Assembly: GCF_053078305.1 (NCBI RefSeq)
Contig: NZ_CP166879.1
DNA length: 64,000 bases
Reading direction: 5' to 3' (one strand)
The position numbers and the translations under genes were made by a program. The stretch's first letter is position 1, and every line of letters begins with the position of its first letter. Below, one piece after another: positions 2,880-36,541 of this stretch. The notes below the pieces were generated by a model, which saw nothing but the letters and a program-made list of their open reading frames with translations, ran no database searches and was not told where the DNA came from.

Positions 2880-2908
2880 ATGCTCTGGATAAGGATTATC
2901 CAATTCTA

Positions 2909-3017
2909 AAAAAAAGCCCGGACGACTGTTCGGGCTTGTCTTTTTATATGTTGGAAAATCAGTGGCAATGCAATGGCCCAACAGAAAATAAAATCTGTGA
3001 CAATAAAGGCATATAAC
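2909..3017 (-). ncRNA. micC: MicC small regulatory RNA, divergent from ompN
   Basis: Minus-strand sequence GTTATATGCCTTTATTGTCACAGATTTTATTTTCTGTTGGGCC... matches the MicC sequence as I recall it. It ends in the hairpin GCCCGAACAGTCGTCCGGGC plus a U-run. Confidence 0.8.
2916..2935. terminator. Bidirectional intrinsic terminator shared by ydbK (plus) and micC (minus)
   Basis: GC-rich inverted repeat gcccg-N10-cgggc flanked by an A-run (2908-2915) and a T-rich run (2938-2944). Confidence 0.7.
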
Positions 3018-3244
3018 CCGCGCAGAATAACGTATAGAAAATTAAAAGTATAATTTTTATTTTGTATGTATTATCTTCGATACATTCACCAGACTTATTA
3101 TCATTTCAGAGGAATTATTTGATTAAGGTTTTACTTAAGGCGTAACAAATGATATTTATCGGCTAACTGAACTTCTCCTTTAGGATGTTTTCACTCCCCG
3201 AAATGGGGATAAAAGGCAAATAAAATAACTAAAGGATTTATTCA

Positions 3245-4378
3245 ATGAAAAGCAAAGTACTGGCACTTTTAATTCCTGCCCTGCTCGCCGCAGGTGCTGC
3301 ACATGCAGCCGAAGTTTATAATAAAGACGGCAACAAATTAGATCTGTATGGCAAAGTTGATGGCCTGCATTATTTTTCTGATAATTCAGCGAAAGATGGC
3401 GACCAGAGCTATGCGCGTCTGGGTTTTAAAGGCGAAACCCAAATTAACGATCAACTTACTGGCTACGGTCAATGGGAATACAATATTCAGGCAAACAACA
3501 CTGAATCTTCAAAAAACCAGTCATGGACCCGTCTGGCATTTGCCGGACTGAAATTTGCAGATTACGGTTCTTTCGATTACGGACGTAATTATGGCGTAAT
3601 GTACGACATCGAAGGCTGGACCGATATGCTGCCTGAATTTGGCGGTGACTCTTATACCAATGCAGACAACTTTATGACTGGTCGAGCCAATGGCGTCGCG
3701 ACTTATCGTAATACTGATTTCTTCGGTCTGGTAAATGGTCTGAACTTCGCGGTGCAGTATCAAGGTAACAACGAAGGAGCCAGTAATGGTCAGGAAGGCA
3801 CCAACAACGGACGTGATGTTCGCCATGAAAACGGTGACGGCTGGGGTCTTTCCACAACATATGATTTAGGCATGGGCTTTAGCGCTGGTGCGGCATACAC
3901 ATCTTCTGACCGCACCAATGACCAGGTTAACCATACTGCGGCGGGTGGTGATAAAGCAGACGCGTGGACTGCTGGGCTAAAATACGATGCTAACAATATT
4001 TACCTGGCAACCATGTATTCAGAAACGCGTAATATGACCCCGTTTGGCGACAGCGATTATGCTGTTGCAAACAAAACCCAGAACTTTGAAGTCACTGCAC
4101 AGTACCAGTTTGATTTTGGTCTGCGTCCGGCAGTCTCTTTCCTGATGTCTAAAGGCCGTGACCTGCACGCTGCCGGTGGTGCAGACAACCCGGCAGGTGT
4201 TGATGATAAAGATCTGGTTAAATACGCCGATGTTGGCGCGACTTACTATTTCAATAAAAACATGTCCACCTATGTTGACTATAAAATCAACCTGTTGGAT
4301 GAAGATGACAGTTTCTACGCTGCCAACGGCATCTCTACCGATGATATTGTCGCTTTAGGTCTGGTTTATCAGTTCTAA
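3245..4378 (+). CDS. ompN: Outer membrane porin N (OmpC/OmpF family), 377 aa
   Basis: Signal peptide [21 protein letters not shown] followed by [16 protein letters not shown], a typical general-porin N-terminus, and a C-terminal aromatic residue. Length matches the K-12 protein. Confidence 0.9.
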
Positions 4379-4437: not shown

Positions 4438-4953
<516 letters not shown>

Positions 4954-4960
4954 CACTAAC

Positions 4961-4985
4961 GCCCGCACATTGCTGCGGGCTTTTT
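4961..4985 (+). terminator. Intrinsic terminator after uspF
   Basis: Hairpin gcccgca...tgcgggc followed by ttttt. Confidence 0.6.
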
Positions 4986-5128
4986 GATTCATTTCGCAAA
5001 TGTGCTGACATTTTCCCCTCTAATCCGTACCATACACGCCACAGTTTTTATATCAGATTTCTTATGCTGGGCGTTCCGGCATGACGCATACTCTTCTGAT
5101 GCCATATAACGAATTGAGTCGCTTTTAA

Positions 5129-6064
5129 ATGTCGCAAAATCAAGAAATTAGCAAGAAAGAACAATACAACCTGAACAAATTACAAAAACGTCTGCGTCGT
5201 AACGTGGGCGAAGCCATTGCTGACTTCAATATGATTGAAGAAGGCGATCGCATCATGGTTTGCCTCTCCGGGGGTAAAGACAGCTATACCATGCTGGAGA
5301 TTCTGCGCAATTTGCAGCAAAGCGCGCCAATCAATTTTTCGCTGGTGGCTGTTAACCTCGATCAAAAGCAACCGGGCTTCCCGGAACACGTTCTGCCCGA
5401 GTATCTTGAAAAGCTGGGCGTTGAGTACAAGATTGTTGAAGAGAACACTTACGGTATCGTGAAAGAGAAGATTCCAGAGGGCAAAACCACTTGCTCACTG
5501 TGTTCTCGGCTACGTCGCGGTATCCTTTATCGCACCGCAACGGAACTGGGGGCGACGAAGATCGCGTTGGGCCACCATCGTGACGATATCCTGCAAACGT
5601 TGTTCTTAAATATGTTCTACGGCGGCAAGATGAAAGGTATGCCTCCGAAACTGATGAGCGATGATGGCAAACATATCGTTATTCGTCCGCTGGCCTACTG
5701 CCGCGAGAAAGATATTCAGCGATTTGCCGATGCAAAAGCGTTCCCGATTATTCCGTGCAACCTGTGCGGTTCACAGCCTAACCTGCAACGTCAGGTGATT
5801 GCTGACATGTTGCGTGACTGGGATAAACGTTATCCAGGGCGTATCGAGACGATGTTCAGCGCGATGCAGAATGTGGTGCCGTCGCATCTGTGCGATACCA
5901 ACCTGTTCGATTTCAAAGGCATCACCCACGGTTCTGAAGTGGTTAACGGGGGTGATCTGGCGTTTGATCGCGAAGAGATCCCACTACAACCGGCGGGCTG
6001 GCAGCCAGAAGAAGATGAAAATCAGTTGGATGAGTTACGGCTGAATGTGGTTGAAGTGAAATAA
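5129..6064 (+). CDS. ttcA: tRNA 2-thiocytidine biosynthesis protein TtcA, 311 aa, uninterrupted
   Basis: PP-loop motif CLSGGKDS and conserved Cys pairs. Full length equals the K-12 protein. Confidence 0.9.
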
Positions 6065-6192: not shown

Positions 6193-7566
6193 TTATTTTA
6201 ATAACCGCACCCGGCACGTTTTTCCTTTAATCTTCCCGCCCTGTAACTGTTTCCATGCTTTATGAGCAACAGCCTGACGGACCGCGACATAGACATGCGC
6301 CGGATGCACGGCGATTTTGCCAATATCTGCGCCATCAAGCCCGATATCTCCTGTCAGTGCACCTAATACATCACCCGGGCGCATTTTGGCTTTTTTCCCG
6401 CCATCGATACACAACGTTGCCATTTCTGCTTCCAGCGTCACAATGGAACTATTAGCTGGCGGCGTTTGCCAGTTAAGTTTTATCTGCAACATGTCAGAAA
6501 TGATATTGGCCCGCTGTGCTTCTTCCGGAGCACAGAAACTGATCGCCAGACCGCTATTTCCTGCACGAGCTGTACGACCGATGCGATGTACATGAACTTC
6601 AGGGTCCCACGCCAGCTCAAAGTTCACCACCAGCTCAAGCGATTTAATATCCAGACCACGCGCAGCAACATCAGTCGCGACCAGTACACGGGCGCTACCG
6701 TTAGCAAAACGTACCAGGGTCTGATCGCGATCGCGTTGCTCCAAATCGCCGTGTAATGACAATGCACTTTGCCCTACTTCATTCAGCGCGTCGCAGACAG
6801 CCTGGCAATCTTTTTTGGTATTGCAAAACACCACGCAAGAGGATGGCTGATGCAAGCTTAATAACCGTTGCAACAGAGGAATTTTGCCTTTACTGGATGT
6901 CTCATAAAATTGTTGATCAATGGGTGGCAAAGCATCTGTTGAGTCAATTTCAATCGCCAAAGGATCGCGTTGCACTCGTCCGCTGATTGCGGCGATGGCT
7001 TCCGGCCAGGTTGCCGAAAACAGAAGCGTCTGTCGAGATGCTGGCGCAAAACGGATGACATCATCAATGGCATCGCTAAATCCCATATCCAGCATGCGGT
7101 CGGCCTCATCCATCACCAGCGTATTCAACGCATCCAGTGATACCGTGCCTTTTTGCAGGTGATCCAGCAAACGCCCCGGCGTTGCCACGATAATATGCGG
7201 CGCATGTTGCAACGAATCACGCTGCATACCGAACGGTTGACCACCGCACAACGTCAAAATTTTGGTATTTGGCAGAAAACGCGCCAGCCGACGCAATTCA
7301 CCTGCCACCTGATCCGCCAGTTCACGCGTAGGACACAGCACTAAAGCCTGGGTTTGAAATAGCGACGCATCAATTTGCTGTAACAAGCCGAGGCCAAAAG
7401 CCGCCGTTTTGCCGCTGCCGGTTTTCGCCTGCACGCGAACATCTTTTCCGGCAAGGATCGCCGGAAGCGCGGCGGCCTGCACCGGCGTCATGGTTAAATA
7501 ACCCAACTCATTAAGGTTCGTGAGTTGGGCGGGAGGCAAAACATTCAGGGTAGAAAAAGCGGTCAC
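6193..7566 (-). CDS. dbpA: ATP-dependent 23S rRNA-specific DEAD-box RNA helicase DbpA, 457 aa, GTG start
   Basis: DEAD box (VMDEADRM), Walker A (AKTGSGKT) and SAT motif. The start codon is GTG (plus-strand cac at 7564-7566). Confidence 0.9.
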   Translation of the reverse strand: MTAFSTLNVLPPAQLTNLNELGYLTMTPVQAAALPAILAGKDVRVQAKTGSGKTAAFGLGLLQQIDASLFQTQALVLCPTRELADQVAGELRRLARFLPNTKILTLCGGQPFGMQRDSLQHAPHIIVATPGRLLDHLQKGTVSLDALNTLVMDEADRMLDMGFSDAIDDVIRFAPASRQTLLFSATWPEAIAAISGRVQRDPLAIEIDSTDALPPIDQQFYETSSKGKIPLLQRLLSLHQPSSCVVFCNTKKDCQAVCDALNEVGQSALSLHGDLEQRDRDQTLVRFANGSARVLVATDVAARGLDIKSLELVVNFELAWDPEVHVHRIGRTARAGNSGLAISFCAPEEAQRANIISDMLQIKLNWQTPPANSSIVTLEAEMATLCIDGGKKAKMRPGDVLGALTGDIGLDGADIGKIAVHPAHVYVAVRQAVAHKAWKQLQGGKIKGKTCRVRLLK

Positions 7567-7826: not shown

Positions 7827-7948
7827 AAAAAAAAGCCGACTCATCAAAGTCGGCGTCGTACGAATCAATTGTGCTATGCAGTAATTCAAAAAAGGAAGTA
7901 AGACAATATGGAGCGCAACGCCCATCGCTTGACGTTGCATTCACCTGC
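7827..7948 (-). ncRNA. fnrS: FnrS small RNA (FNR-activated)
   Basis: Minus-strand GCAGGTGAATGCAACGTCAAGCGATGGGCGTTGCGCTCCATATTGTCTTACTTCC... ending in hairpin GCCGACTTTGATGAGTCGGC plus U8, matching FnrS as I recall it. Confidence 0.8.
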
Positions 7949-11325: not shown

Positions 11326-11419
11326 ACCGGCGCAGAGGAGACAATGCCGGATTTAAGACGCGGATGCACTGCTGTGTGTACTGTAGAGTCTGGCGGATGT
11401 CGACAGACTCTATTTTTTT
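11326..11419 (+). ncRNA. mcaS: McaS (IsrA) small RNA
   Basis: ACCGGCGCAGAGGAGACAATGCCGGATTTAAGACGCGGATGCACTGCTGTGTGTACTGTAGAGTCTGGCGGATGTCGACAGACTCTATTTTTTT matches McaS as I recall it. The terminator hairpin and T7 run end 8 nt from the convergent abgR stop. Confidence 0.8.
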
Positions 11420-11427
11420 ATGCAGTT

Positions 11428-19712: not shown

Positions 19713-19955
19713 GATGTAATCCTTGTGCAGACAAATTTCTTGTTACCTAAACGTAACAATACCATGACATTTCACCGTTGTCTGCTCTGAAAACCTCACC
19801 TCTTAGCTGGATTTACAATCAACGCATTGATTAGTTAGCTAATGTTGCTACTTCCTTCCCTGACTATTGATGATCTGAATGAATTGTCGCGGTAAAATAG
19901 CCCCGCCAGGGGTTTCCGGCATGACGACAATTATCTGGAGGAGCCTGATAAAACA

Positions 19956-24024: not shown

Positions 24025-24945
24025 ATGATGAATAATAAAGTCAGCTTCACTAACAGCAATAATCCAACCATCTCTTTGTCTGCAGTGATCTATTTTCCTC
24101 CAAAATTTGATGAAACCCGTCAATATCCGGCAATTGTGGTATCTCACCCAGGTGGGGGCGTTAAAGAACAAACGGCCGGAACTTATGCCGAAAAACTGGC
24201 GGAAAAGGGATTTGTCACTATTGCTTATGACGCATCTTATCAAGGTGAAAGTGGCGGCGAGCCGCGTCAGTTAGAAAACCCATACATTCGTACTGAAGAC
24301 ATCAGTGCCGTGATTGATTACCTGACAACGCTTTCTTATGTCGACAATACCCGAATTGGTGCGATGGGAATTTGTGCCGGTGCAGGATATACAGCCAATG
24401 CTGCAATTCAGGATCGCCGCATCAAGGCCATCGGTACCGTTAGTGCGGTCAATATTGGTTCGATGTTCCGTAATGGTTGGGAAAACAATGTGAAATCTAT
24501 TGATGCCCTGCCATACGTTGAAGCGGGTTCAAACGCCAGAACCAGCGATATTAGCAGCGGAGAATACGCCATTATGCCACTGGCACCAATGAAGGAGTCC
24601 GATGCGCCGAACGAAGAACTGCGTCAGGCCTGGGAGTATTACCACACCCCTCGCGCGCAGTATCCAACAGCACCGGGTTACGCTACTTTGCGCAGCCTTA
24701 ACCAGATTATTACCTATGATGCTTACCATATGGCGGAAGTGTACCTGACTCAGCCGACGCAGATTGTGGCGGGCAGCCAGGCAGGGAGCAAATGGATGAG
24801 TGACGACCTGTACGATCGGGCATCAAGCCAGGATAAACGCTATCACATTGTTGAAGGCGCAAACCATATGGATCTTTATGACGGCAAAGCCTATGTGGCT
24901 GAAGCAATTTCAGTATTAGCTCCGTTCTTTGAGGAAACTCTGTAA
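24025..24945 (+). CDS. ycjY: Alpha/beta hydrolase, dienelactone-hydrolase-like with a Cys nucleophile elbow, 306 aa
   Basis: G-x-C-x-G nucleophile motif (GICAGAG). Start at MMNNK with GAGGA upstream. The stop overlaps the next gene start. Confidence 0.8.
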   Translation: MMNNKVSFTNSNNPTISLSAVIYFPPKFDETRQYPAIVVSHPGGGVKEQTAGTYAEKLAEKGFVTIAYDASYQGESGGEPRQLENPYIRTEDISAVIDYLTTLSYVDNTRIGAMGICAGAGYTANAAIQDRRIKAIGTVSAVNIGSMFRNGWENNVKSIDALPYVEAGSNARTSDISSGEYAIMPLAPMKESDAPNEELRQAWEYYHTPRAQYPTAPGYATLRSLNQIITYDAYHMAEVYLTQPTQIVAGSQAGSKWMSDDLYDRASSQDKRYHIVEGANHMDLYDGKAYVAEAISVLAPFFEETL

Positions 24946-25874
24946 TGAAACATATTCAAATCCGCAATAGTGATATGGCCTGGCATATTGCTGCCAATAT
25001 TCAGTTTCCACCAAATTTTGATGAGTCAAAACAGTATCCGGCGATTATCAGCGTCCATCCTTTTGGCAGTTGTAAGGAGCAGACGTCTGGCAATATCTAT
25101 GGCAAGGCATTGGCTGAAAAAGGCTATGTCGTTCTCGCTTATGACGCCAGTTTCCAGGGAGAATCTGGTGGGGAGCCTCGTTGGATAGAAGATCCGACAC
25201 AGCGCGTAGAGGATATTAGCCGTGTTATCGATTATGCAGTAACTCTGCCATATGTTGATGCTGAACGCATTGGCGTGCTGGGTGTGTGTGGGGGGGGTGG
25301 CTATGCCATTAATGCCGCGCTGACAGAAAAACGAATTAAAGCTGTAGTGAGTATTACGGGTGTTAATATCGGGCGTCTTTTTCGGGAAGGTTTCAGCAAT
25401 TACGATCCGATTGGCGCATTGAATGCAATGGCGTCGCAACGAACCAAAGAGGCTCGTGGTGGAGAATTACAGATCAACGAATTACTTCCCGCCAGCCTGG
25501 ATGCAGCAAAAGCCCATGGACTGACCGAACGCGATGTTTATGAAGCAACTGACTACTATAAAACACCACGCGGGCAACAACCGGGAGGTGCGACAAAAAT
25601 GTTGTTCTCACATGCACAGAAAACGCTGGCCTGGGATGCCTTCGCATTTACTGAAGTGTTACTGACTCAGCCGGTGATGGTAGTAGTTGGTGAAAAAGTC
25701 GGTGCCTTCGGTGCTTATCGTGATGGACTGGAAGTCTATGGCCGGGCGATGGTTTCGCAGGATCGTCAGTTAGTTTCATTACCCGATTTCTCACATTATG
25801 AACTGTATGACAAACCGGAAGCAGTTCAGGAGGCGCTGGAAAAAGTTATTCCTTTTTTCAACACCCATCTGTGA
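24945..25874 (+). CDS. Second, tandem alpha/beta hydrolase paralogous to ycjY, 309 aa, intact
   Basis: Alignable with YcjY over its whole length (shared blocks AYDASxQGESGGEPR, EDISxVIDY, RIKA). Nucleophile motif GVCGGGG. Translationally coupled via TAATG. May correspond to the locus annotated as a remnant (ymjD) in K-12, from memory. Confidence 0.75.
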   Translation: MKHIQIRNSDMAWHIAANIQFPPNFDESKQYPAIISVHPFGSCKEQTSGNIYGKALAEKGYVVLAYDASFQGESGGEPRWIEDPTQRVEDISRVIDYAVTLPYVDAERIGVLGVCGGGGYAINAALTEKRIKAVVSITGVNIGRLFREGFSNYDPIGALNAMASQRTKEARGGELQINELLPASLDAAKAHGLTERDVYEATDYYKTPRGQQPGGATKMLFSHAQKTLAWDAFAFTEVLLTQPVMVVVGEKVGAFGAYRDGLEVYGRAMVSQDRQLVSLPDFSHYELYDKPEAVQEALEKVIPFFNTHL

Positions 25875-25894
25875 TAAGTTTCATGAGAAATATT

Positions 25895-26532
25895 ATGAAA
25901 AATGTACTCATTCTTGGTGCTGGCGGTCAGATAGCCCGCCATGTGATTAATCAACTGGCAGATAAACAAACCATTAAACAAACTTTATTTGCTCGTCAGC
26001 CAGCAAAAATACACAAACCCTATCCAACTAATAGCCAGATTATTATGGGGGATGTACTGAATCATGCAGCACTGAAGCAGGCCATGCAGGGACAGGATAT
26101 TGTGTATGCCAACCTTACGGGGGAAGATTTAGATATTCAGGCAAATTCAGTGATCGCTGCGATGAAAGCCTGTGATGTTAAACGTCTGATCTTTGTTCTT
26201 TCCCTCGGCATTTATGATGAAGTTCCAGGAAAATTTGGCGAATGGAATAATGCAGTTATTGGTGAGCCCCTAAACCATTCCGCAGGGCTGCGGATGCAAT
26301 TGAGGCTTCTGGACTGGAATATACAATTCTTCGCCCTGCCTGGCTGACGGATGAAGATATTATTGATTATGAGCTTACCTCACGCAATGAACCATTCAAA
26401 GGTACGATCGTATCACGTAAGAGTGTCGCAGCATTAATTACAGATATCATCGATAAACCTGAGAAACACATTGGTGAGAATATAGGCATCAATCAACCCG
26501 GGACTGATGGCGACAAGCCATTCTTCATGTAA
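25895..26532 (+). pseudogene. ymjC: NAD(P)-binding NmrA/SDR-like protein interrupted by a frameshift (ymjC-like)
   Basis: Rossmann motif ILGAGGQIARH. The frame runs to a stop at 26347, but a different frame continues as ...KPFRRAADAIEASGLEYTILRPAWLTDEDIIDYELT... to 26532. The shift maps to about 26265-26276 (gagcccctaaacc). Start codon uncertain (25883 or 25895). Confidence 0.55.
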
Positions 26533-26822
26533 ATCAATTATATAGCCACCATCGTACTGTACTATGTGCAGTACGATTTATTAAACTTATTAAGGTGAAC
26601 TGATCAATCAGATGCGATTAACATGTGTAGAACCAGTAAGAATAAAATACGCCATGTATATAACATTACGACAATTCTAATATCTGCACATCAATAAAAA
26701 TACAAACAACTTCCGGCAAAAAAGTGATACAAGATCGATGACATAGCGTTGAAGAAAAGGATTTGATAATCCGCAAAATTTGCACAACACTGCCTGTAAT
26801 ACTTCCTGAACCAGAGACGATC

Positions 26823-27551: not shown

Positions 27552-28501
<950 letters not shown>

Positions 28502-35458: not shown

Positions 35459-36541
35459 TTAGCGAATTGCTATTTCCGTTTCTGCATCAAAGAAATGACA
35501 TTTAGTCATATCAAAATGAATAGTGATATTTTCTCCTGCATGATAATCATTTAACGCACCAGCACGGACCACTAACTCGTGCCCCCCAACCGTGGTGTAG
35601 AGCATAAATTCCGCACCGGTTAATTCTGCCACGCTAATTTTGGCGGAAATGTTATTTTCCTCTTGCGCGTCCGGATGAATATCTTCCGGGCGTATTCCCA
35701 TCACGATGGGCTTATGCAAACTTTCCTGTGTTTTCAGAACCGCTAATTTCTCTTCGGGAATGGTTAATTTAAGCGTTTCCGTAACGAATTTATTGCCATC
35801 GATCGTGCCGCGAATAAAATTCATCGCCGGTGATCCAATAAATCCGGCAACAAACATATTCGCGGGTTGGTTATAAACGGTTTTCGGCGCACCTACTTGC
35901 TGAACAATCCCGTCTTTCATAATCACAATCCGCGTCGCCATGGTCATCGCTTCGGTCTGATCGTGGGTCACGTAGATCATGGTGGTGTTCAGTTTCTGAT
36001 GCAGCTTGCTGATCTCTGCGCGCATTTGCACGCGCAGCTTGGCATCAAGGTTAGAGAGCGGTTCATCCATTAAAAACACGCCCGCTTCGCGTACAATCGC
36101 CCGCCCGAGCGCCACACGCTGACGTTGCCCGCCGGAAAGCGCGCCCGGCTTGCGTTTCAGGTACTCACGCAGGCCGAGAATTTGCGCCGCCCAGTTCACC
36201 CGCTCATCAATCACCTCTTTGGCGATTTTTTGCATCTTCAGGCCAAACGCCATGTTGTCGTAAACCGTCATATGCGGATACAACGCGTAGTTCTGGAACA
36301 CCATCGCGATATTGCGTGCTTTAGCTGGAACGTCATTCATTCGTTTGCCGTCGATCAACAGATCGCCGCCGCTGATCTCCTCAAGCCCGGCAATCATGCG
36401 CAGGGTGGTCGATTTACCGCAGCCCGACGGGCCGACAAATACAATGAACTCTTTATCGGCAATTTCCAGGTTGAAGTCCTTCACCACATGCACCTGGTTA
36501 TCGTAGATTTTTTGAATATGTTGTAACGAAAGCTGAGCCAT
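35459..36541 (-). CDS. ycjV: ABC transporter ATP-binding protein (MalK-like), intact 360 aa
   Basis: Walker A GPSGCGKST, ABC signature LSGGQ, Walker B VFLMDEPLSNLD. The reading frame is uninterrupted. Confidence 0.85.
   Translation of the reverse strand: MAQLSLQHIQKIYDNQVHVVKDFNLEIADKEFIVFVGPSGCGKSTTLRMIAGLEEISGGDLLIDGKRMNDVPAKARNIAMVFQNYALYPHMTVYDNMAFGLKMQKIAKEVIDERVNWAAQILGLREYLKRKPGALSGGQRQRVALGRAIVREAGVFLMDEPLSNLDAKLRVQMRAEISKLHQKLNTTMIYVTHDQTEAMTMATRIVIMKDGIVQQVGAPKTVYNQPANMFVAGFIGSPAMNFIRGTIDGNKFVTETLKLTIPEEKLAVLKTQESLHKPIVMGIRPEDIHPDAQEENNISAKISVAELTGAEFMLYTTVGGHELVVRAGALNDYHAGENITIHFDMTKCHFFDAETEIAIR

Follow-up and report, generated by a model that had tools for sequence, protein, structure and literature searches.

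At the tRNA-gene attachment sites of phages P4 and P22, a phage-borne substitute restores the gene end that integration displaces. The Rac prophage of Escherichia coli K-12, located at ttcA, resembles e14 and phage 21 at icd in that it is inserted in a host gene, carries a substitute gene end and leaves a short duplicated stub, which is icdC in the case of icd (PMC6379469). e14, phage 21, P4 and P22 replace 3′ ends and need no promoter, whereas Rac-type phages replace a 5′ end and must therefore bring a ribosome-binding region and a promoter, the latter overlapping integrase codons. Qin, at the 5′ end of ydfJ, is like Rac in being inserted at the 5′ end of a host gene, but promoter loss and truncation of ydfJ have been reported for Qin (PMC6379469), while Rac-type phages leave ttcA complete and transcribed. 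Here, we have analyzed a stretch of 64,000 nucleotides (NCBI RefSeq assembly GCF_053078305.1, contig NZ_CP166879.1; the window), in which no prophage is found at the Rac attachment site between uspF and ttcA.

The closest described system is the Rac site of K-12, for which attB, attL and attR were described by Liu et al. 2015 (PMC4632033). The annotated order in K-12 MG1655 is uspF, ttcC (a 51-bp pseudogene), Rac (23,060 bp), xisR, intR and ttcA, which agrees with the preliminary description of the window in placing Rac of K-12 between uspF and ttcA with a duplicated ttcA fragment. The window has in common with the K-12 site the gene, the 26-bp core, the N-terminus MSQNQEIS that is found after excision, and the neighbours uspF and dbpA; it differs in being the naturally empty form, with one synonymous difference in codon 8. 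A Rac-type integrase is also located directly upstream of ttcA, at the same core position, in Sp10 (O157:H7 Sakai), CP-933R (EDL933), Rac-SA53 (KU052037.1) and the int/xis of Klebsiella pneumoniae MGH78578. Those sites are occupied whereas the window is empty, and the core of SA53 carries three substitutions in its left part. In the ortholog table of PMC3415461, orthologues of intR and xisR come directly after ttcA in K. pneumoniae MGH78578 (KPN_01375-01377), and uspF (KPN_01444) is ~67 gene numbers away; the same attachment site thus appears to be occupied in Klebsiella. An empty Rac attB is already known, common and previously described.

Our analysis of the window suggests that there is more to this site than an absent prophage. 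We consider it highly probable that the locus as a whole is an empty Rac-family attB together with a fossil of an integrase gene that has been kept as the promoter of ttcA, and that the site is the healed scar of an old integration. The integrase fossil in the ttcA spacer is apparently undescribed: neither a fossil nor an intR-internal ttcA promoter was found in open-access papers on ttcA with Rac, integrase or promoter, a search that did not extend to subscription journals or database entries.

The attachment site was delimited by a three-way alignment of window positions 4930-5260 with both K-12 Rac junctions. Both junctions fall inside 4954-5200, the segment in which the preliminary description had placed the integration site. 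The K-12 uspF-side junction matches the window through 5178 and is phage DNA beyond, while on the intR side phage DNA extends to 5152 and agreement with the window begins at 5153. The features of the site are given below.

5153-5178, plus strand: attB core, 26 bp, AAGAAAGAACAATACAACCTGAACAA, in ttcA codons 9-17, with 26/26 identity to both K-12 Rac ends.
5129-5152, plus strand: ttcA codons 1-8, the segment exchanged by an integrating Rac-type phage according to the junction alignments; 17/24 nt identical to the Rac surrogate.
5164-5178, plus strand: putative narrowed strand-exchange zone, at most 15 bp, ATACAACCTGAACAA, from the SA53 junction variants.
5138-5150, plus strand: predicted match to the integration host factor (IHF) consensus, AATCAAGAAATTA = WATCAANNNNTTR, read from the sequence and abutting the core.

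There is one copy of AAGAAAGAACAATACAACCTGAACAA in the window, and two in the K-12 region, exactly at the annotated Rac ends and 23,060 bp apart. The same 26-bp position is independently annotated as attP/attB in GenBank KU052037.1 (phage Rac-SA53). The window has a single copy of the core and no int, xis, prophage genes or ttcC stub, so that 4954-5200 is the uspF-ttcA junction of an E. coli chromosome in which the attB of Rac-family lambdoid phages is unoccupied. The junctions of the SA53 lysogen retain the host GAACAA on the uspF side and the phage GAGATA on the int side. Since host and phage variants are sorted by side in these junctions, strand exchange would take place in the right-hand 15 bp of the core, to the right of core position 11 and within 5164-5178. 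The same IHF consensus is present at both Rac junctions, and an IHF peak has been observed solely at the ttcA-side junction of K-12 (PMC8407004). K-12 IntR itself has the Pfam domains Arm-DNA-bind_2 and Phage_integrase. The attP arms of K-12 Rac (locus L001, 4950-5000 and ~27790-27850) contain five exact TTGCCCC repeats in one orientation, three of them in the P′ arm and two in the interval from the intR stop to the surrogate ttcA ATG. These repeats, which are likely to be arm-type IntR binding sites, are not found in the window, and similar repeats are present in the Enterobacter and Brenneria remnants described below.

Occupancy of the site was surveyed in 5,426 complete E. coli genomes. The site is uninterrupted in 2,494 of them (46%), and an int-side junction is found in 2,919, which are occupied (54%). 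Breakpoints in the occupied genomes are located at constant bases, 5178 towards uspF and 5136 towards ttcA, the latter because the phage surrogate of codons 1-8 is 17/24 identical. A full-length Rac-type intR is present in 1,832 of the occupied genomes, and ~1,087 have a truncated integrase next to ttcA. Junctions at these bases in 2,919 genomes, together with the published excision product (PMC4632033), fit in vivo recombination at the core, which would thus be supported indirectly. A few genomes are atypical, some with the ttcA-side junction alone at a single place and one with a match solely to window 5100-5141; this suggests deletions or other insertions at the site. None of the surveyed genomes is identical to the window (1-25000 compared), so that the source strain is not one of the 5,426; identity to the nearest is 99.6% over 25 kb and, for the 1.8 kb of uspF-ttcA, 99.8% (an O157:H7 strain).

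Serotype O157:H7 is itself split, in that Sakai is occupied by the 51-kb Sp10 while Xuzhou21, in which uspF is directly followed by ttcA, and TR01 are empty. Occupancy is an unstable lineage trait. Moreover, experimental excision of Rac restores this attB (PMC4632033, PMC11014345). Precise excision leaves an identical sequence, and never-lysogenised and cured states therefore look alike. That the window would represent a Rac-free lineage, as had been proposed, goes too far, since one site was seen, occupancy varies within O157:H7 and excision is precise.

The spacer between uspF and ttcA is 175 bp long (4954-5128). The list of open reading frames (ORFs) shows no integrase ORF, no other phage-protein ORF and no coding potential of the spacer's own, and no RNA family was detected in 4954-5200 in an Rfam scan at gathering thresholds. 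The 23-kb interior of K-12 Rac has zero matches across the whole 64-kb window in blastn, megablast and tblastx searches. These results bear out the earlier statement that uspF is followed directly by an intact 311-codon ttcA with no prophage genes. The accompanying statement that there is no integrase is correct as far as genes are concerned; it does not extend to a 51-nt integrase fossil at 4998-5048, which we describe together with the overlapping promoter.

4998-5048, plus strand: gene fossil of a Rac-type tyrosine integrase, intR codons ~345-361, KRAGIRRRNPYHTRHTF, with the box II catalytic motif; from DNA alignment, tblastn and outgroups.
5005-5033, plus strand: predicted sigma70 promoter of ttcA, with -35 CTGACA at 5005-5010, a 17-nt spacer and -10 TACCAT at 5028-5033; 9/12 matches.
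5041-5128, plus strand: predicted 5′ untranslated region (UTR) of ttcA, 88 nt, from the predicted start; no significant homology to the phage arm.

The spacer translation NPYHTRHSF corresponds to NPYHTRHTF of IntR, which is the box II motif of tyrosine recombinases. The alignment of 4998-5048 with K-12 intR is ungapped, with 39/51 nt identical and a score of 54. Dinucleotide shuffles (2,000) gave a mean score of 18.8 with a standard deviation of 2.6 and a maximum of 33, so that the fossil scores ~14 standard deviations above the mean, and the reverse-complement control scored 16. When IntR was compared by tblastn with window 4900-5200, 13/25 residues including NPYHTRH were identical, with an E value of 2e-5 in that small search space. 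In strand and in its side of ttcA, the fossil agrees with the intR of lysogens. An extension of the fossil past 5048 was rejected, as a gapped alignment gains just 2 score units. Comparison of 5049-5128 with five phage arms gave scores within the shuffle range, and the fossil is thus confined to 4998-5048. Taken at the level of sequence comparison, these results show 4998-5048 to be a real integrase-derived remnant, which is shared with Citrobacter.

Upstream of ttcA in other Enterobacterales, the integrase is found in graded stages of preservation. This comparison was based on species-representative genomes with TtcA, namely the best 80 of at least 596 confirmed hits, a set that includes neither Salmonella nor Klebsiella. 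An intact Rac-type integrase is located upstream of ttcA in an E. coli-like metagenome-assembled genome, in Enterobacter cloacae (70% amino acid identity) and in a soil metagenome-assembled genome. Integrase remnants of 70-124 codons are found in E. albertii, where uspF is ~2 kb upstream, and in Enterobacter spp., Kluyvera and Brenneria. Relics of ~46 nt (8 short-relic loci) are found, besides the window, in two Citrobacter species, Pseudocitrobacter, Enterobacter asburiae, Superficieibacter, Enterobacter BIGb0383, Pectobacterium and Mangrovibacter. The short relics have common left and right boundaries and unrelated flanks, with the exception of the window and Citrobacter copies, which are clearly orthologous. 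Among the loci scanned, the element is absent upstream of ttcA in Rosenbergiella, Yersinia and Serratia. Two cases of intermediate decay were observed between uspF and ttcA, a 2.3-kb pseudogene remnant in E. coli R6 (locus L089, 9958-12284) and ~2.3 kb of debris in E. albertii (locus L010, 1042-3395), and in both the last ~77-124 integrase codons are kept.

Comparison of E. coli with Citrobacter werkmanii shows that the relic is identical at 48/51 positions (94%) and the rest of the 5′ UTR at 65/80 (5049-5128), and that identity at third-codon positions is 51-59% in uspF and ttcA. The hairpin of the uspF terminator is also kept in Citrobacter. The intact integrase genes tell a similar story: when codons of conserved residues are compared between K-12 intR and the Enterobacter int (70% amino acid identity), 18/20 are identical in codons 343-362 and 92/252 elsewhere in int (Fisher p = 2.8e-6). 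The excess of codon identity and the conservation of the relics point to a constraint on the DNA itself.

What this constraint could be is suggested by the predicted promoter of ttcA. It is the sole sigma70-like site on both strands of 4850-5250, where shuffled sequences average 0.7 sites, and it predicts a ttcA start at A5041. The conserved block of the relics covers about -44 to +3 relative to this promoter. The homologous K-12 element, CTGGTA-17 nt-TACCAT, is located inside intR, and from it we predicted beforehand a K-12 ttcA start near 1412161. SMRT-Cappable-seq has mapped a start of ttcA (b1344) at 1412160 on the reverse strand, the sole ttcA operon and start in that data set (PMC6131387 Suppl. 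Data 2, 4), with one transcriptional context in M9 and rich medium (PMC6131387). This position is within 1 nt of the prediction; it is an A, 7 nt past TACCAT, and lies in intR, 212 nt 5′ of the ttcA ATG. We infer that 4998-5048 would drive ttcA in this strain, its activity being predicted from homology and conservation, and that this promoter function would be the reason why the fossil has been retained. Shimada et al. 2014 do not mention the ttcA locus, and the part of the Kim et al. supplement that was covered (PMC3415461) gives no start for ttcA of K. pneumoniae.

Several observations weigh against this interpretation. Kim et al. 2012 reported K-12 ttcA starts at 1410083/1410086 in older coordinates, with 5′ UTRs of 111/114 nt and 8/15 reads, and the -212 start is not in their data (PMC3415461). 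Their starts correspond to NC_000913.3 1412059-1412062, ~100 nt downstream of the conserved element, and no counterpart of the region around -111 could be detected in the window. The two studies agree that K-12 ttcA transcription begins within intR and disagree by ~100 nt on the position. The 42-residue translation of the fossil has no Pfam match at E values up to 10, the fragment spanning ~17/172 positions of the Phage_integrase profile, and in tblastn against all phage records the fossil hits integrases at E values of ~8-10, which are non-significant at whole-database scale. Besides prophage-record copies of the host spacer, the best hits in the phage collection are almost all Rac-type integrases at the box II motif, again non-significant. 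Because of these null results, the claim of a fossil rests on the locus-restricted statistics and the comparative series. Several of the relics show near-identity to modern int alleles, which could come from recent independent decay or gene conversion and not from long-term selection. The narrowing of the crossover, for its part, has SA53 as its single lysogen.

Could the similarity of 4998-5048 to integrase genes be coincidental, so that the spacer is plain intergenic DNA without phage ancestry? The shortness of the match (51 nt), the Pfam result and the non-significant match to the whole phage collection would be expected on that account. It is nevertheless strongly disfavoured, and we give it next to no credence, since none of the 2,000 shuffles reached the score of the fossil, its orientation and position are those that intR would predict, and graded intermediates, from 411 down to 17 codons, are found at the same place in other genera, along with the truncated int of ~1,087 E. 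coli genomes. A second alternative concerns the reason for retention. The ~46-nt element could have been kept as a site for Int, Xis or IHF, or by repeated overwriting through recombination with incoming phages. Its position within the P arm of attP, at a distance of ~200-255 nt from the core, is one at which arm sites could occur; the near-identity of several relics to modern int alleles and the starts of Kim et al. 2012 would also be accommodated. An arm-type integrase site is disfavoured, as the fitting TTGCCCC repeats are located elsewhere in attP and none is in the element. Moreover, at a phage-free site, a phage binding site would not be expected to retain 94% identity from E. coli to Citrobacter, and the boundaries of the element coincide with -44 to +3 of a promoter that has a mapped capped start. 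We therefore regard retention for a non-promoter reason as improbable. A third alternative concerns the empty state and is a rival to the idea of a Rac-free lineage, not to the assignment of attB: the site could be empty through recent loss of a Rac-like prophage by precise IntR/XisR excision. Excision of Rac yields exactly this attB and the TtcA′ N-terminus (PMC4632033, PMC11014345), close relatives in O157:H7 differ in occupancy, and more than half of the E. coli genomes (54%) are occupied; against this, no Rac DNA is found anywhere in the 64 kb, and the window would look alike under cured and never-lysogenised histories, since precise excision is markless. Recent loss is conceivable, and in our judgement rather doubtful.

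How the integration of Rac-type phages affects the protein is evident from the N-terminus of TtcA. The window encodes MSQNQEIS, the TtcA′ type, and K-12 TtcA begins with the phage-encoded MQENQQIT. Over the full proteins, window and K-12 TtcA differ at residues 2, 3, 6 and 8, which belong to the phage-supplied codons, and at residue 290, and nowhere else. The product of K-12 ttcC equals residues 1-17 of window TtcA, with one synonymous base change at 5152 (codon 8, AGC in the window and AGT in K-12). Liu et al. 2015 showed that Rac excision alters four N-terminal residues to give TtcA′, and that TtcA′ is the natural form in strains lacking a Rac-like prophage (PMC4632033). Among genera of Enterobacterales, codons for TtcA residues 2-8 are hypervariable while residues 9-30 are near-invariant, which is the pattern expected if phage 5′ ends have been swapped in repeatedly. 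A 2023 paper in Nucleic Acids Research on Rac excision reports three base changes, with Q6E and T8S alone, in contrast to the four residue changes of Liu et al. 2015. The junction sequences analyzed here predict four changes after excision, Q2S, E3Q, Q6E and T8S. The discrepancy between the two papers may come from the placing of the 23,060-bp deletion within an imperfect repeat.

We propose that an IntR-type tyrosine integrase, with an arm-binding and a catalytic domain, would recombine the attB core with phage attP, probably within 5164-5178. After integration, one end of the prophage would be flanked by uspF with its spacer and by a ttcC stub of 17 codons; at the other end, the phage would provide the body of ttcA with codons 1-8, with a 5′ UTR and with a promoter lying within int, at its 3′ end. 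The empty site of the window is probably an old, healed scar of this kind, and the integration that left it would be older than the split of Escherichia and Citrobacter. As the int end, the spacer and the surrogate codons are contiguous in attP, codons 1-8 of the "ancestral" ttcA were probably also supplied by the ancient phage. With more reserve than for the locus as a whole, we favour the wider proposal that the ttcA promoter of E. coli, Citrobacter and many Enterobacterales would be exapted box II codons of int; that Rac phages would embed a host promoter in the int ORF under both protein and DNA constraint, of which only -44 to +3 outlasts decay of the prophage; and that the empty site, and probably the first eight ttcA codons, would stem from an ancient integration.

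The surroundings of the site are those of the K-12 chromosome. The gene order in the window, from the ORF list and the Rfam scan, is pfo, MicC, ompN, uspF, ttcA, dbpA, FnrS and zntB, and the features concerned are given below.

81-2879: pfo.
2900-3020, minus strand: MicC small RNA, from the Rfam scan at gathering threshold, in its usual K-12 neighbourhood.
3245-4378: ompN.
4519-4953, plus strand: uspF, 144 residues, the left flank of the site; NCBIfam UspF equivalog at 303 bits and Pfam Usp; its counterpart is K-12 uspF, which adjoins ttcC.
4961-4985, plus strand: intrinsic terminator of uspF from a terminator scan, with a hairpin at 4961-4980 followed by a T run to 4985; 7-bp stem, 6 GC pairs and a TTTTT tail.
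5129-6064, plus strand: ttcA, tRNA 2-thiocytidine-32 synthetase, 311 codons, intact; NCBIfam TtcA equivalog NF007972.
6193-7566, minus strand: dbpA.
7831-7948, minus strand: FnrS small RNA, found by the same scan, in its usual K-12 neighbourhood.
11326-11421, plus strand: McaS small RNA, likewise from the Rfam gathering-threshold scan and in its usual K-12 neighbourhood.

TtcA matches NF007972 over its full length at 513.6 bits, where the cut-off is 272, and also matches Pfam ATP_bind_3; the SGGKDS PP-loop and the CSLC and CNLC motifs are legible in its translation. Apart from Rac, IS5F and a few small indels, the window aligns collinearly with K-12 1353234-1437000 (97-99% identity), and this collinearity upholds the view that the window is backbone and not an island. 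IS5F, which in K-12 is located between ynaI and ynaJ, is absent at 19835-19838, where the flanks join cleanly. Two segments at the ymjC/ymjD fragments, 25003-25888 and 26034-26692 (~886 and 659 bp), have no K-12 counterpart, and intact ORFs are found there in the window at 24945-25874 (309 residues) and 25871-26347 (158 residues); from this comparison, deletions between ycjY and mpaA appear to have occurred in K-12. K-12 ycjV is annotated as a pseudogene together with ymjB; in its place, the window has an ORF of 360 residues (35459-36541, minus strand), and by its sequence ycjV seems to be intact.

The main use of recognizing the empty site is that it marks this stretch as core chromosome, with a TtcA that has the non-lysogen N-terminus. 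Lysogens and non-lysogens would have related but different ttcA promoters and 5′ UTRs, of 212 nt and a predicted 88 nt respectively, and this difference could bear on the phenotypes reported after Rac excision. Our reading would also mean that a phage integrating at the 5′ end of a gene can maintain expression of that gene by means of a promoter inside its own integrase ORF. Such a promoter can outlast the phage and become the normal promoter of the host gene, in which case phage DNA would have been domesticated as host regulatory DNA.

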